Part shown: one piece after another, positions 1-60,983 of the stretch
How positions within the stretch are numbered: the stretch's first letter is position 1
Layout: each line of letters begins with the position of its first letter
Origin: Escherichia coli
GTDB lineage: Bacteria; Pseudomonadota; Gammaproteobacteria; Enterobacterales; Enterobacteriaceae
NCBI RefSeq assembly: GCF_024223415.1
Contig: NZ_CP100500.1
Direction: 5' to 3' (one strand)
Length of the DNA: 64,000 bases
Position numbers and translations under genes: made by a program
Notes under the pieces: generated by a model
Database searches by the model: none
Told to the model about the DNA's origin: nothing
What the model saw: only the letters and a program-made list of their open reading frames with translations

Positions 1-207
1 ACGGTTCGACGAAAGAGGGCTTCCACAACTTGAGTGAAAGAAAATGTATGAGGCTTACCAGTGAAGCCGTTTTAAGTTATGGGTAACTTAATACACTCAC
101 TTAAGAGATTTCTACGGTTACTTTGCTGATGGCAATACGGTCAAGAAGTTATTAGCTCTGACGGTATATAACCCTCCATCTCCCCGGAAAATGCAAAACA
201 GCACTAT

Positions 208-18800: not shown

Positions 18801-19185
18801 CGTACAGGCGCTGAACATGGGGCGAATTGTCGTTGACATTGATGGTGTTGAGCTCACTGAACTGATTAACAAGGTCGCTGAAAACGGTTATTCACTCCGC
18901 GTGGTGGATGAACGTGACGCTACCGAAACACCGGCGACTTCTGCCAGCTCTCATCAGTTGCCGGAAGACAATACAGTGATACAGAGCGTGATGCCATTAA
19001 CCACTGAAACAGCGCTGGATATCCTCATTGCGTGGCTGCAGGACAATATCGACTGCGGGTCCGGAATTATTTTCGACAACGATGAGGATAAAACGGATTC
19101 GGCAGCACTGCTGCCCTGTATTGAACAGGCCAGGGAGGATATCCGTACCCTGCACCAACTGCAACTTCTGCACCAGAACCGGTGA
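18763..19185 (+). CDS. YeeW-like protein
   Basis: 140-aa ORF immediately after cbtA, as in CP4-type islands; identity is from recollection of yeeW-like genes, moderate certainty. Confidence 0.5.
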
Positions 19186-49330: not shown

Positions 49331-50422
49331 ATGCGTTTTCTGCGCCGACCAATATCGCTGCGCCAACGGCTGATATTGACCATCGGGGCCATTTTGTTGG
49401 TGTTTGAGCTGATTAGCGTCTTCTGGCTATGGCATGAAAGTACCGAGCAGATTCAGCTGTTTGAGCAGGCGCTACGCGACAATCGCAACAACGATCGCCA
49501 CATCATGCGTGAGATCCGCGAGGCGGTCGCCAGCCTGATTGTCCCCGGCGTCTTTATGGTCAGCCTGACGCTATTTATCTGCTATCAGGCGGTACGCCGC
49601 ATCACCCGCCCGCTGGCGGAGCTGCAAAAAGAGCTGGAAGCGCGCACCGCCGACAACTTAACGCCCATTGCCATTCACAGCGCCACCCTCGAAATCGAAG
49701 CGGTGGTTTCGGCGTTGAACGATCTGGTCAGTCGCCTGACCAGCACGCTGGATAACGAAAGGTTATTTACCGCTGACGTCGCGCACGAACTGCGAACGCC
49801 ACTGGCGGGGGTGCGTTTGCATCTGGAACTGCTGGCGAAAACGCATCACATTGATGTAGCACCGTTAGTGGCACGGCTTGATCAGATGATGGAGAGCGTC
49901 TCCCAGCTGCTGCAACTGGCGCGTGCCGGACAGTCATTTTCTTCCGGTAATTATCAACATGTAAAACTGCTGGAAGATGTCATTCTCCCCTCGTATGACG
50001 AACTCAGTACCATGCTCGACCAGCGACAGCAAACCCTGCTATTGCCAGAGAGCGCCGCCGACATCACCGTTCAGGGTGATGCAACCCTGCTGCGGATGTT
50101 ATTGCGAAACCTGGTAGAAAACGCCCATCGTTACAGCCCGCAAGGCAGCAACATTATGATTAAGCTGCAAGAAGATGGCGGAGCGGTCATGGCCGTTGAA
50201 GATGAAGGACCAGGTATTGATGAGAGTAAATGCGGGGAGTTGAGTAAAGCGTTTGTACGTATGGACAGCCGTTATGGCGGGATTGGTCTGGGGTTAAGTA
50301 TTGTCAGCCGCATTACACAGTTGCATCACGGGCAGTTTTTCCTGCAAAACCGGCAAGAGACTTCCGGCACGCGGGCCTGGGTACGGCTGAAGAAAGATCA
50401 GTACGTGGCAAACCAGATATAA
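49331..50422 (+). CDS. basS: sensor kinase BasS (PmrB)
   Basis: Start at ATG 49331 (MRFLRRPISL..., 363 aa) matching BasS; the ORF track begins at an upstream TTG. Confidence 0.9.
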   Translation: MRFLRRPISLRQRLILTIGAILLVFELISVFWLWHESTEQIQLFEQALRDNRNNDRHIMREIREAVASLIVPGVFMVSLTLFICYQAVRRITRPLAELQKELEARTADNLTPIAIHSATLEIEAVVSALNDLVSRLTSTLDNERLFTADVAHELRTPLAGVRLHLELLAKTHHIDVAPLVARLDQMMESVSQLLQLARAGQSFSSGNYQHVKLLEDVILPSYDELSTMLDQRQQTLLLPESAADITVQGDATLLRMLLRNLVENAHRYSPQGSNIMIKLQEDGGAVMAVEDEGPGIDESKCGELSKAFVRMDSRYGGIGLGLSIVSRITQLHHGQFFLQNRQETSGTRAWVRLKKDQYVANQI

Positions 50423-50487
50423 AGAAAGCTGCTGACCACCAGCACGCTGAACACGGTAGTTAAACTTTCATAAACACGGTTTTTCAT
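50398..50487 (-). CDS. pmrR: small membrane protein PmrR
   Basis: 29-aa ORF found manually: MKNRVYESLTTVFSVLVVSSFLYIWFATY, with a GGAGG Shine-Dalgarno upstream; overlaps the 3' end of basS on the opposite strand. Confidence 0.6.
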   Translation of the reverse strand: MKNRVYESLTTVFSVLVVSSFLYIWFATY

Positions 50488-50601
50488 TGCACTCTCCTCC
50501 GTTAATCTGGAGGAGAGTATGCGCGGCAGAGATTAAGTGAACCTTAAGAGTTCAATTGTTGGTCTGATAAGACAGCGTCACATCAGGCCATCCGTTTCAG
50601 C

Positions 50602-56221: not shown

Positions 56222-56287
56222 GGTAAGCCGGATAAGGCGCTCGCGCCGCATCCGGCAACGGTGCCAGATGCCTGATGCGACGCTTGC
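56222..56287. repeat. REP palindromic unit abutting the IS left end
   Basis: gccggataaggcgctcgcgccgcatccggc and gcctgatgcgacgc, typical REP sequences. Confidence 0.65.
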
Positions 56288-57146
<859 letters not shown>

Positions 57147-57150
<4 letters not shown>

Positions 57151-57677
57151 GCTCTGGATGACTTTCGTTTTTTCTCCAGCTCCTGGCGCTTTTTTTCCAG
57201 GAGATGCTCCTGCATGGCTTTCAGATATGCATTTTCTGCGCGAAGATAACGCAGCTCATTCTTCATCTCTTCCGGCGTCATGTTTGCCTCGTTTTCATGG
57301 GTATCATCAGAACGGGTCATGCTTTTCTCCTTCCTGCGCCTGATAAAGGCCTCATTACCAGATTTGCGGTAGCCTTTTATCCAGTTTTTAACCATGTTGT
57401 GGCTGGGAATGTTAAACCGGGCAGCTACCCGGGGTAGAGACTCAGAATGCCCGAGAGCATAAAGAACCACGCAAAGTTTATCTTCAGGAGAATAGCTACG
57501 CTTGTGTCTGCAATCCAGTGCCTGAGGACCGTGAAGAAGAAAAAGATTAATCCAGTGTGAGAGGCTGGTGTGAGAAAGTTGAAAGAGTTTTGCCGTAGAA
57601 ATGATGCCTGCATGACCGGCCAGGTAATGATTTACAGCGGCAAGTTTTACTTCAAATGAATGTTTCATAAACTGCAC
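57147..57677 (-). CDS. IS3-family transposase OrfA (HTH, leucine-zipper-like C-terminus)
   Basis: 176-aa ORF with HTH and a K/E/L-rich C-terminal region; A-rich slippery stretches near the 3' end. Confidence 0.8.
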
Positions 57678-57719
57678 CTTCAGATGTCAGATTATGTCCA
57701 ACATTTGGGGTGCAGTTCA

Positions 57720-57850
57720 TGGTGCGTCTTATCAGGCCTACGTCAGACAGCGCAATAGCCTGATTTAGCGTGATTTTGTAGGTCGGATAAGGCGTTTACG
57801 CCGCATCCGACATCAACGCCTGATGCGACGCTTAACGCGTCTTATCAGGC
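57720..57850. repeat. REP/BIME cluster on the right of the IS, downstream of yjcO
   Basis: Several palindromic units (gcgtcttatcaggcctac; aggtcggataaggcgtttacgccgcatccgaca; gcctgatgcgacgcttaacgcgtcttatcaggcctac). Confidence 0.65.
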
Positions 57851-57855
57851 CTACC

Positions 57856-58545
57856 TTAACCGTTAGTTAATTTTTCAAACTCTTCACACCCGGTATCAAA
57901 CCCTTCCATACAGCTCAGGTTCAACCAGTGCAGCGCCTTTTGCTTGTTCTTCTCGATAAAACCTTCTTCACCGTTTAAGAACATCATTCCCGCCCAGTAC
58001 TCGGAATAACCGGTTCGGGAAATTGCAGAGCTGCGTTTGAAATACCAGGTTGCCTTGTCATCGTCGGCCTTAATGCCCACGCCGTTGGCGTAAATCAAAC
58101 CAAGCAGCATTTGGGCATCGACGGCAGAGTCGTTCTCCAGATCTTCCGAGGCGTTTTCTAACAGCGAAATCGCCTTTGGATAATCCGGTTTACCCGCTTG
58201 AGTATTTACCAGAATATGCGCCAGCGTTACTTCACCTTCTTTACTGCCCGCTTGCGCCGCTTTCTCTGCAAGAACTTTTGCTTGTGGATAGTCCAGACTG
58301 ACCGGATTGGTGATTTTGATCTACGCCAACAGCGCGCAGGCATCAGCATCACCGCTGTCGGCGGCTTTCTGTGCCCAATATTCGGCTTTGCTCAAATCGC
58401 CGGAGCTAAACCAGCTGTCGGCAAGAAAATATTGTGCGCGTCGGTCCCCGGCCTCTGCTGCCTTTAAATACTGGCTGCCAGGCTCGGAGTCGTTGGCGTG
58501 GGCAAAGAATGTCAAAAACAACATCAATGCGATAATTTTTTTCAT
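57856..58545 (-). pseudogene. yjcO: yjcO (Sel1-repeat protein) with an in-frame amber stop at 58320-58322
   Basis: N-terminal ORF 58321-58545 and C-terminal ORF 57856-58110 are in the same frame; the intervening sequence reads ...ACALLA-TAG-IKITNPVSLDY where remembered YjcO has Gln (ACALLAQIKITNPV). Confidence 0.7.
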
Positions 58546-58638
58546 TTTGATAATACGATTGGGTAGGGAGTAACCAGTATAAAGAGTTCGAATGGATAAA
58601 AAAACAGCCTCCGAAAGGAGGCTGTAGAAAGGACTGTA

Positions 58639-60786
58639 TTACGCCAGTGCCGCTTCGCGCAGGCGAGTTTTCAACTTGTTGTACTCGTCAATCACGTACT
58701 GCTCGGCGGCGCGCTGATCGGCGATCGGCTCGACGCGCACGGCGCAGTATTTGTATTCCGGCGTTTTCGTAATCGGGCTTAAGTTTTCGGTAACCAGCTC
58801 GTTACAGGCACCAATCCACCACTGGTAGGTCATATAAATCGCCCCTTTGTTCGGACGATCGCTGACCTGCGCACGGGTGATAATTTTGCCTTTACGCGAG
58901 TGCACCCAAACCAATGCCTCATCTTCAATACCCAGACGTTTGGCGTCTTCGGTATTGATTTGTGCGTAGCCAGGTTCATCCGCCAGCGCCGCCAGTGCCG
59001 CACAGTTACCGGTCATCGAACGGCAAGAGTAGTGACCAACTTCACGCACCGTTGACAGTACCATCGGGTACTCGTCGGTGAGTTTGTCGATTGGCGCTAC
59101 CCAGTCGCAGGTGAAGAACTGCGCCAGACCGTTCGGGGTATCAAACTTCTCTTTAAACAGATAAGAAGTCCCCTGATCGGCATCTGAAGTATCGCGGCAA
59201 GGCCACTGAATGAAGCCCAGTTCGCCCATTTTCTCGTAAGTCGCACCGTAGAAATCCGGGCACAGATGACGCAACTCATCCCAGATCTCCTGGGTGTTGT
59301 TGTAGTGCATCGGATAACCCATACGGGTGGCGATTTCACTGATGATTTGCCAGTCCGTTTTCAGATCCCATTTCGGTTCAACTGCTTTGAAGAAACGCTG
59401 GAAGCCACGGTCAGCCGCAGTAAACACGCCTTCATGCTCGCCCCACGACGTTGACGGTAAAATAACATCCGCCGCCGACGCGGTTTTGGTCATAAAGATG
59501 TCCTGAACGATAACCAGTTCCAGATCTTCAAAGGCTTTACGTACTGCCGACAGCTCCGCGTCAGTTTGTAGCGGATCTTCGCCCATAATGTACGCGGCAC
59601 GCACTTCGCCATGCGCTGCGCGGTGCGGCAGCTCGCTGATGCGATAACCGGTATGAGCAGGCAGGCTTTCCACGCCCCAGGCTTTGGCGAATTTCTCGCG
59701 GTTAGCCGGATCTTTCACGTACTGGTATCCCGGATACGTATCCGGCAGCGCGCCCATATCGCAGGCACCCTGCACGTTGTTCTGACCACGAACCGGGTTT
59801 ACACCCGCATGCGGCTTACCGAGGTTACCGGTCAGCATCGCGAGGCTGGTCAGAGAACGCACGGTTTCCACGCCCTGGTAGAACTGGGTTACACCCATGC
59901 CCCACAGGATGGCGGCGCTTTTCGCCTGGGCATACATCCGTGCCGCCTGACGAATCTCACTGGCGCTGACGCCGGTGATATCTTCAACCGACTCCGGCGT
60001 GTAGCCTTCAACGATTTTACGATACTCTTCAAAGCCTTCTGTACGTGAAGCGACGAACGCTTTGTCGTACAGATTTTCTTCAATAATGACATGGCCCATC
60101 GCATTCAACAGCGCGATGTTCGAGCCGTTTTTCAGTGCAATGTGCATGTCAGCAATGCGCGCGGTTTCAATTTTGCGCGGATCGCAGACGATAATTTTCG
60201 CCCCGTTACGTTTAGCGTTAATTACGTGATTCGCCACGATTGGGTGGGAATCCGCCGGGTTGTACCCGAAAACGAACACTAAATCGGTATTATCAATTTC
60301 GTTAATAGCATTGCTCATTGCGCCATTACCGACCGATTGGTGCAGACCTGCAACCGATGGGCCGTGTCAGACACGAGCGCAGCAGTCAACGTTATTGGTA
60401 CCAATAACGGCGCGCGCAAATTTTTGCATTACATAGTTGGTTTCGTTACCCGTACCACGCGAGGAGCCGGTCGTCTGGATGGCATCCGGACCGTACTTCT
60501 CTTTGATGGCGCTCAGGCGCTCGGCAACGTAATTCAGTGCCTCATCCCAGGAAACAGGTTCGAGTTTGCCGCCACGCTGGCGACGGATCATGGGGGTTTT
60601 CAGGCGCGGGGTCAGGATCTGGGTATCGTTAATGAAATCCCAGCCATAATAACCCTTCAGACACAGGGTACCCTGGTTGGTTTTCCCCTGCGCTGCCTCC
60701 GCCCGGACGATTTTGCCGTTATCGACGACCAGGTTGATTTTGCAACCTGATGCGCAATAGGGGCAAACCGTGACGACTTTTTTCAT
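58639..60786 (-). CDS. fdhF: formate dehydrogenase H, selenocysteine-containing (UGA-Sec at 60367-60369)
   Basis: ORFs 60367-60786 and 58639-60318 are in the same frame separated only by TGA; the junction reads ...VDCCARV-U-HGPSVAGLHQSVGNG as in FdhF Sec140. Total 715 codons. Confidence 0.9.
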
Positions 60787-60983
60787 CGGTCTCGCTCCAG
60801 TTAATCAAATCACGCATACGCGCTCTCGACTACAGTATGCATCTTTTATGCCACATTTTATTTGGGGTCATTCCCTGATATTACGGGCACTATTTATTCA
60901 AAACTCTGACGAAAAACAGGCTGTCGTCAGTTTTGACGTGACGAAACGAAATACCGCGTGACGGCCATCACGCGGCAGACATT

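Follow-up and report, generated by a model that had tools for sequence, protein, structure and literature searches.

The minus-strand locus described here is almost certainly (probability about 0.98) fdhF, encoding one 715-residue selenoprotein in which UGA codon 140 is recoded as selenocysteine (Sec) by way of a SECIS element. Five kinds of observation bear on this assignment: a single reading frame, a match with the crystallised protein, a match with the SECIS covariance model, an association of the TGA codon with the hairpin across lineages, and a local constraint on synonymous sites. The recoding of the fdhF UGA is already known and is a textbook case of bacterial selenocysteine recoding. 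Throughout, the whole 64-kb stretch of DNA analysed is referred to as the window, and the coordinates of the features within it are collected in the table below.

When read through, positions 60786..58639 (−) give 716 codons in one frame, with a terminal TAA and a sole internal stop, TGA 60369..60367 (−), which alignment places at codon 140. The residues surrounding this stop are NNVDCCARV-(stop)-HGPSVAGLHQSVGNGAMSNAI, that is, CARV-(stop)-HGPSVAGL. The open reading frame (ORF) calls break the frame into two pieces, 60367..60786 (−; 139 residues, ending in NNVDCCARV) and 58639..60318 (−; 559 residues), which are in phase with each other (60786 − 60318 = 468 = 156 × 3). The initial annotation had held that the two pieces share a frame, a point confirmed by the continuous translation, and that they form a single CDS of 715 codons, with which translation, alignment to entries of the Protein Data Bank (PDB) and RefSeq all agree. 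Its description of the pieces as separated only by TGA is right in substance, the frame being open throughout, but is inexact in that the gap between the calls consists of the TGA plus 48 nt (60366..60319), because the ORF caller resumes at the next ATG, Met157 (60318).

The identity of the encoded protein is supported at the level of single residues. With codon 140 entered as X in the protein queries, the translation aligns with the E. coli formate dehydrogenase H (FDH-H) chains 1AA6, 1FDI, 1FDO, 2IV2 and 7Z0T, the last from the formate hydrogenlyase (FHL) complex, in which FDH-H is the subunit that oxidises formate, at 715 of 715 positions with 0 mismatches and with X facing X at position 140. 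The protein is thus alike in every residue to that of E. coli K-12, which carries Sec at 140, and both the equation of TGA 60367–60369 with Sec140 and the alignment to FdhF proposed as a check of it are borne out. TIGR01591 (NCBIfam Fdh-alpha) matches the translation with 1089 bits (cut-off 666.25) over protein residues 6–685 and profile positions 1–672 of 672. In the same kind of profile search, FdhF lies far under every cut-off of the other molybdopterin oxidoreductase models; TIGR01553, for instance, reaches 248 bits only, against a cut-off of 814. Cys8, Cys11, Cys15, Cys42, His141 and Arg333 are all present; following the FDH-H structure, we take Sec140, His141 and Arg333 to be the active site and the cysteines to be those of the N-terminal 4Fe-4S cluster. 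To judge from its sequence, FdhF would here catalyse formate oxidation with Mo-bisMGD bound.

At the DNA level, fdhF is base-for-base identical to that of E. coli SCU-316, for which RefSeq gives a single 2148-nt fdhF CDS with yjcO and mdtP as neighbours, and the 2.6 kb around the gene shows 100% identity to several complete E. coli genomes. This 2.6-kb region is matched in 5419 of 5426 complete E. coli genomes, 1084 records matching at 95–99% identity only. By the initial annotation, a sense codon at position 140 would have counted against the Sec reading; what is found there is TGA, and over the 131 nt that surround it identity is 99% or more in 5419 of the 5420 E. coli records that match. 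As in other E. coli, fdhF has yjcO and mdtP as its neighbours. Compared with E. coli K-12, fdhF itself shows no differences, and only the wider context differs, by an IS1397 copy and by an apparent inversion of ~32 kb relative to the closest complete genome.

That wider context merits a separate description. The window joins yjdM, IS1397 and yjcO, and this junction is spanned by no complete genome. The closest genome has a segment of ~32 kb, running from yjcO to yjdN, that is bracketed by two copies of IS1397 in inverted orientation, and because the segment is bracketed in this way the arrangement in the window looks like an apparent inversion of it. In addition, yjcO is interrupted by a private amber codon (CAG to TAG at 58323; TAG 58323..58321), which occurs in 0 of 5426 complete E. 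coli genomes, the wild-type 41-mer being present in 2183.

Table. Coordinates of fdhF, its recoding element and its flanking signals in the 64-kb window.
Feature	Position	Strand	Basis or remark
fdhF CDS, 715 aa + TAA; FDH-H, the catalytic subunit of FHL	58639..60786	−	frame, PDB match, TIGR01591, RefSeq
UGA codon 140, Sec140	60367..60369	−	faces X140 of the crystallised FDH-H
48 nt outside both ORF calls, codons 141–156 (HGPSVAGLHQSVGNGA)	60319..60366	−	coding, within SECIS
SECIS, 55 nt, full Rfam SECIS_2	60320..60374	−	RF01988 covariance-model match
Upper stem-loop, nt 15–31 counted from U of UGA	60339..60355	−	minimal SelB-binding hairpin according to PMC8659212
Bulged U17 of upper stem-loop	60353	−	sequence
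Apical GGUC, nt 22–25	60348..60345	−	G23 = 60347, U24 = 60346
GGAG, putative ribosome-binding site, 8 nt 5′ of ATG 60786..60784	60795..60798	−	read from sequence
Putative sigma-54 (−24/−12 type) promoter-like TGGCATAAAAGATGCA, 5′ of fdhF	60838..60853	−	consensus with 2 mismatches
Intrinsic-terminator-like hairpin ACAGCCTCC-TTTC-GGAGGCTGT followed by TTTTTTT	58604..58625	−	14 nt past fdhF stop; 9 pairs, 6 G-C, T-run

The Rfam model SECIS_2 (RF01988) matches the minus strand at the UGA over its full length (model positions 1–55 of 55) with a score of 87.1 bits (gathering score 70; E = 9.9e-19), in agreement with the SECIS that the initial annotation had predicted there. The element begins 5 nt 5′ of the UGA, which occupies model positions 6–8, in frame and within the coding sequence, and whose A forms a pair of the lower stem. 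The interval originally proposed for the site, 60340–60400, takes in the UGA together with the loop and the 5′ arm of the hairpin but misses part of the 3′ arm, which reaches 60320. The upper stem-loop starts 11 nt past the UGA, as the spacing rule of PMC8659212 has it, and nt 15–31 correspond to the minimal SelB-binding element of that review, in which U17, G23 and U24 are SelB contacts. The Rfam consensus, which represents the enterobacterial fdhF type, is the same as the sequence here except at 2 positions, which form one pair that is still standard.

The element is singular within the window and not a product of chance. The Rfam scan shows no second SECIS in the 64 kb, and of the 2542 TGA triplets that its two strands contain, a single one has GGTC at +22..25 along with 80% or more of the SECIS pairs. 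The TGA codons at 19183 (+), 16452 (+) and 25004 (−), each with at least 100 open codons on either side, show no SECIS features. Rfam matches to ZMP-ZTP, Atu_Ti3 and Yar_3 near fdhF have E > 1, lie far under their gathering scores and were set aside as chance; the Atu_Ti3 match overlaps the terminator hairpin of fdhF. Besides fdhF, E. coli has two selenoprotein genes, fdnG and fdoG, which encode periplasmic Tat-exported enzymes of ~1015 residues. Their mechanism is common to fdhF, each encoding a formate dehydrogenase alpha subunit in which the UGA is followed immediately by a hairpin that binds SelB, but hairpin sequence and protein architecture are different, and the SECIS_3 model scores the fdhF element at a sub-threshold 35.8 bits (gathering score 63).

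Folding of the ~40 nt downstream of the UGA had been suggested as a check, and it returns essentially the expected structure: the minimum free energy (MFE) fold of 40–48 nt from the UGA differs from the SECIS_2 hairpin only in the bulged base, U17 versus U18. The check is nevertheless not discriminating on its own. Compared with dinucleotide shuffles, the stability of the hairpin is not significant (z = −0.7 for 48 nt, −1.3 for 40 nt and −1.8 for 101 nt), and among the loci listed from the species scan described below the mean unconstrained MFE is −14.0 kcal/mol for TGA copies versus −14.6 kcal/mol for copies with a Cys codon. Because the shuffle z-scores are weak and the Cys paralogues equally stable, hairpin stability alone cannot identify a SECIS; decisive are the covariance-model match and the comparison of Sec with Cys copies.

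That comparison draws on a scan of the genomes of 100,044 species for the peptide context CARV-(TGA/TGC/TGT)-HGPxV, a pattern that is blind past nt 17. At least 120 loci with the CARV(U/C)HGP context were found in other genomes, and those listed comprise 51 with TGA, 40 with TGC and 29 with TGT; 4 loci were too short and were left out, so that 51 TGA copies (50 loci and the window) and 66 Cys copies were analysed. Among the loci listed, GGUC stands at nt 22–25 in 51/51 TGA copies versus 6/66 Cys copies, the mean fraction of SECIS pairs formed is 0.90 versus 0.54, and the median energy of the imposed SECIS structure is −11.9 versus +7.0 kcal/mol. The SECIS_2 gathering score is reached by 7/7 enterobacterial Sec copies and 0/7 Cys paralogues of the same species among these loci; the listed Sec copies of Pasteurellaceae, Budvicia and Coriobacteriales fall under it, and the position of GGUC is kept in the divergent hairpins of Coriobacteriales (L121) and Haemophilus among them. 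The Cys-type FdhF proteins (Enterobacterales paralogues, and homologues from Firmicutes and others) have the CARV-x-HGPxV context and the downstream residues in common with fdhF; they differ in a TGC or TGT sense codon, in the lack of a SECIS and in synonymous sites that are free to vary.

The last of these differences was quantified as synonymous-codon identity in the 24 species, among the loci listed, that have a Sec paralogue as well as a Cys one, a design that controls for phylogenetic depth. In these species, identity is indistinct between Sec and Cys copies at codons −45..−16 (0.543 and 0.544) and is 0.603 and 0.628 at codons +17..+32 and 0.602 and 0.510 at codons +33..+64. Over codons +1..+16, which hold the SECIS, it is 0.866 in Sec copies versus 0.413 in Cys copies, with amino-acid identities among the loci listed of 0.97 and 0.95, respectively. 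This constraint is the trace left by an RNA signal that overlies coding sequence, and it is seen in the UGA copies only. It may extend to the 15 codons 5′ of the UGA, where the corresponding values are 0.699 and 0.566 (0.70 versus 0.57 when rounded) and where 4 codons are fixed by the search pattern.

Base pairing within the hairpin was followed in the 30 distinct Sec-type sequences among the loci listed. RNAalifold did not recover the SECIS from these sequences and returned another, weak consensus (−4.55 kcal/mol) with no covarying pairs; it was set aside, and covariation was scored by counting pairs on the structures given by Rfam and by the literature. In this set, U17, G23 and U24 are invariant (30/30), and standard pairs fill 90–91% of cells, versus 23–49% for slid partners. 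Pair 15–31 (G-C) is replaced by U-A in 6 sequences and by U-G in 1, and pair 18–29, which forms when U17 is bulged, changes from U-A to A-U in 6. Changes on both sides occur at 3 pairs, in 14 cells versus 3.8 expected. These compensatory changes come mostly from one lineage, Pasteurellaceae, and may trace back to one or two events in evolution. In the register of Rfam and of the MFE fold, U17 is paired and U18 unpaired; the published bulged-U17 register is favoured over it because it adds the compensatory pair 18–29, a choice that concerns a detail of the model and not the locus.

Two other readings take the ORF calls at face value. If the TGA were a true nonsense mutation, fdhF would be a pseudogene yielding a 139-residue fragment only, as the call that stops at the TGA would have it; the amber codon of the neighbouring yjcO, a real nonsense codon, tells us that this strain does acquire inactivating mutations. 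The contrast between the two codons is instructive, however, since the yjcO TAG is absent from all complete genomes and has no SECIS features, whereas the fdhF TGA adjoins a full-length SECIS, lies in DNA shared with SCU-316 and conserved across the E. coli records, is followed by 575 intact codons that match the PDB sequence, and corresponds to Sec in the crystallised protein. A nonsense mutation is accordingly extremely improbable. The chance that the locus holds two genes, one for a 139-residue Fe-S protein and one for a 559-residue molybdopterin protein starting at ATG 60318, is extremely small. Each listed piece does have a start codon, but the intervening 48 nt are open, in frame and encode the conserved HGPSVAGL..., the solved structures contain one 715-residue chain, RefSeq has a single CDS, and in 69 homologous loci among those listed the site is a Cys sense codon inside one continuous gene.

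It is also very improbable that the UGA is read by a standard near-cognate tRNA (Trp or Cys), with the hairpin merely slowing the ribosome. SECIS-independent read-through of UGA does reach ~5–8% in E. coli reporters, but SECIS-dependent recoding in that system amounts to 30–40% and requires selenium (PMC4513850). Moreover, PDB entries of identical sequence carry Sec, the bases found invariant (U17, G23 and U24) are the reported SelB contacts and not those that would maximise stability, and the Cys paralogues, equally stable when folded, are without the GGUC motif, all of which favours recoding as selenocysteine through the SECIS.

The course of that recoding can be outlined from published work. 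A stretch of mRNA that begins 5 nt 5′ of the UGA and extends to ~50 nt 3′ of it folds into the bacterial SECIS, and SelB, with GTP and Sec-tRNA(Sec), would bind the upper stem-loop at nt 15–31, as described in the literature. The approaching ribosome would then melt the lower stem, and the tethered ternary complex would bring Sec-tRNA(Sec) to the UGA, by then in the A site, before release factor 2 (RF2) does its work. Kotini et al. 2015 (PMC4513850) found for the fdhF UGA and SECIS that SelB-GTP-Sec-tRNA(Sec) binds early and that the ribosome unwinds the lower stem; Sec is inserted by ~30–40% of ribosomes, RF2 terminates the remainder, and selenium is needed. Both SelB binding and selenium-dependent read-through were demonstrated there for this exact sequence. 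SelB binding, kinetics and Mo ligation are carried over from such literature and would presumably hold at this locus. An ORF finder, by reading the UGA as a stop, produces the 139-residue piece and the 559-residue piece that begins at Met157. In FDH-H, Sec140 ligates Mo, and here too it would become a ligand of the bis-MGD molybdenum in the active site, beside His141 and Arg333. The 64-kb window contains no tRNA gene and no selA, selB, selC or selD; of the 5426 complete E. coli genomes, 5424 have selC (tRNA-Sec), and the Sec-decoding machinery is, going by the species, probably present in this strain.

Published work has treated the lower stem as dispensable for SelB binding. Because the synonymous constraint in Sec copies spans all 16 codons, lower stem included, we tentatively raise the idea, on balance doubtful, that this lower helix, which encloses the UGA, has been selected for a separate function, perhaps to time the recruitment of SelB or to keep RF2 away from the UGA until the ribosome gets there.

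Matches to the sigma-54 consensus with 2 mismatches are not enriched in the 64-kb window (18 found versus 27.7 expected), and the pattern alone proves nothing for an fdhF promoter; the putative assignment draws instead on its position and on the published dependence of fdhF expression on FhlA/sigma-54 (PMC11291172).

For fdhF itself, the result matters for annotation only and brings no new biology: a naive ORF caller splits the gene and drops 48 coding nt, and pipelines should merge the pieces and record a Sec exception at codon 140. A role for the lower helix, if true, would extend the model of Kotini et al. 2015, with no new kind of element. More generally, the comparison of Sec and Cys paralogues clearly demonstrates that an RNA signal superimposed on coding sequence leaves a local footprint at synonymous sites.

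The fdhF hairpin that follows the selenocysteine (Sec) UGA can be drawn in two registers. In the alignment of Sec-type homologous sequences (A1), Pasteurellaceae show compensatory changes at two positions of the stem, with G15-C31 replaced by U-A and U18-A29 replaced by A-U (numbered from the U of the UGA). These covariations favour the drawing with a bulged U17, whereas in the Rfam consensus and the minimum free energy (MFE) fold U17 is paired and U18 is left out.

SECIS features are absent at the other in-frame stop codons considered in the window (see table). All three additional TGA codons lack them, with pair fractions of 0.33–0.67 and no GGUC, and none are present at the amber codon of yjcO. 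The latter arises through a single C>T change of codon 75 from CAG (Gln) to TAG, which is the sole difference between this yjcO and that of SCU-316, the closest complete E. coli genome. The 41-mer centred on the variant occurs in 0 of 5,426 complete E. coli genomes, and its wild-type counterpart is found in 2,183 of the same set. Either the yjcO TAG is a real nonsense mutation private to this strain, or it is a sequencing error.

Features of the window outside the Sec codon, and the upper stem of the fdhF hairpin
Feature	Position	Strand
TGA with at least 100 open codons on each side	16452	+
TGA with at least 100 open codons on each side	19183	+
TGA with at least 100 open codons on each side	25004	-
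sRNA STnc630 (Rfam, 178 bits, above gathering score)	50391-50556	-
yjdM, joined to IS1397	~55.9-56.2 kb	
IS1397 copy	~56250-57741	-
naRNA4 (Rfam, 75 bits, above gathering score)	57781-57851	+
yjcO, Sel1-repeat protein, 229 aa	57856-58545	-
In-frame TAG, codon 75 of yjcO	58321-58323	-
Upper stem, A1 columns 20-36	60355..60339	

Genes in the window are arranged as crfC-yjdM-IS1397-yjcO-fdhF-mdtP, and the naRNA4 match lies in the small interval that separates the end of IS1397 from the stop codon of yjcO. SCU-316 carries two inverted copies of IS1397, one between gltP and yjcO and the other between yjdN and yjdM, and relative to this placement the window corresponds to an inversion of the ~32-kb segment that runs from yjcO to yjdN, with fdhF inside it. 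The yjdM-IS1397-yjcO junction is not covered from end to end in any complete E. coli genome (best coverage 82% or 68%), and the inverted arrangement may reflect either a true IS-mediated inversion or an assembly error. Of 5,420 matches to the fdhF Sec-codon region in the complete E. coli genomes, 4 lie on records classed as plasmids rather than chromosomes.

Many Enterobacterales carry two types of fdhF together, a Sec type with TGA and SECIS and a Cys type with TGC or TGT and no SECIS, in at least 24 species pairs (for example L003/L004, L007/L008 and L010/L011 of the cross-species scan). Among the loci listed, Pluralibacter gergoviae (L047, L049, L048) and Cedecea neteri (L082, L083, L081) each hold two TGA copies and one Cys copy, and E. 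coli is represented there by the Sec copy only. Further afield, the L121:734 region of an uncultured Coriobacteriales MAG encodes a TGA-type homologue whose downstream sequence is quite unlike that of E. coli (60% of the E. coli pairs) and scores below the SECIS_2 gathering score of Rfam. It keeps GGUC at exactly nt 22–25 past the UGA, and this downstream element may represent a divergent SECIS built on the same plan.
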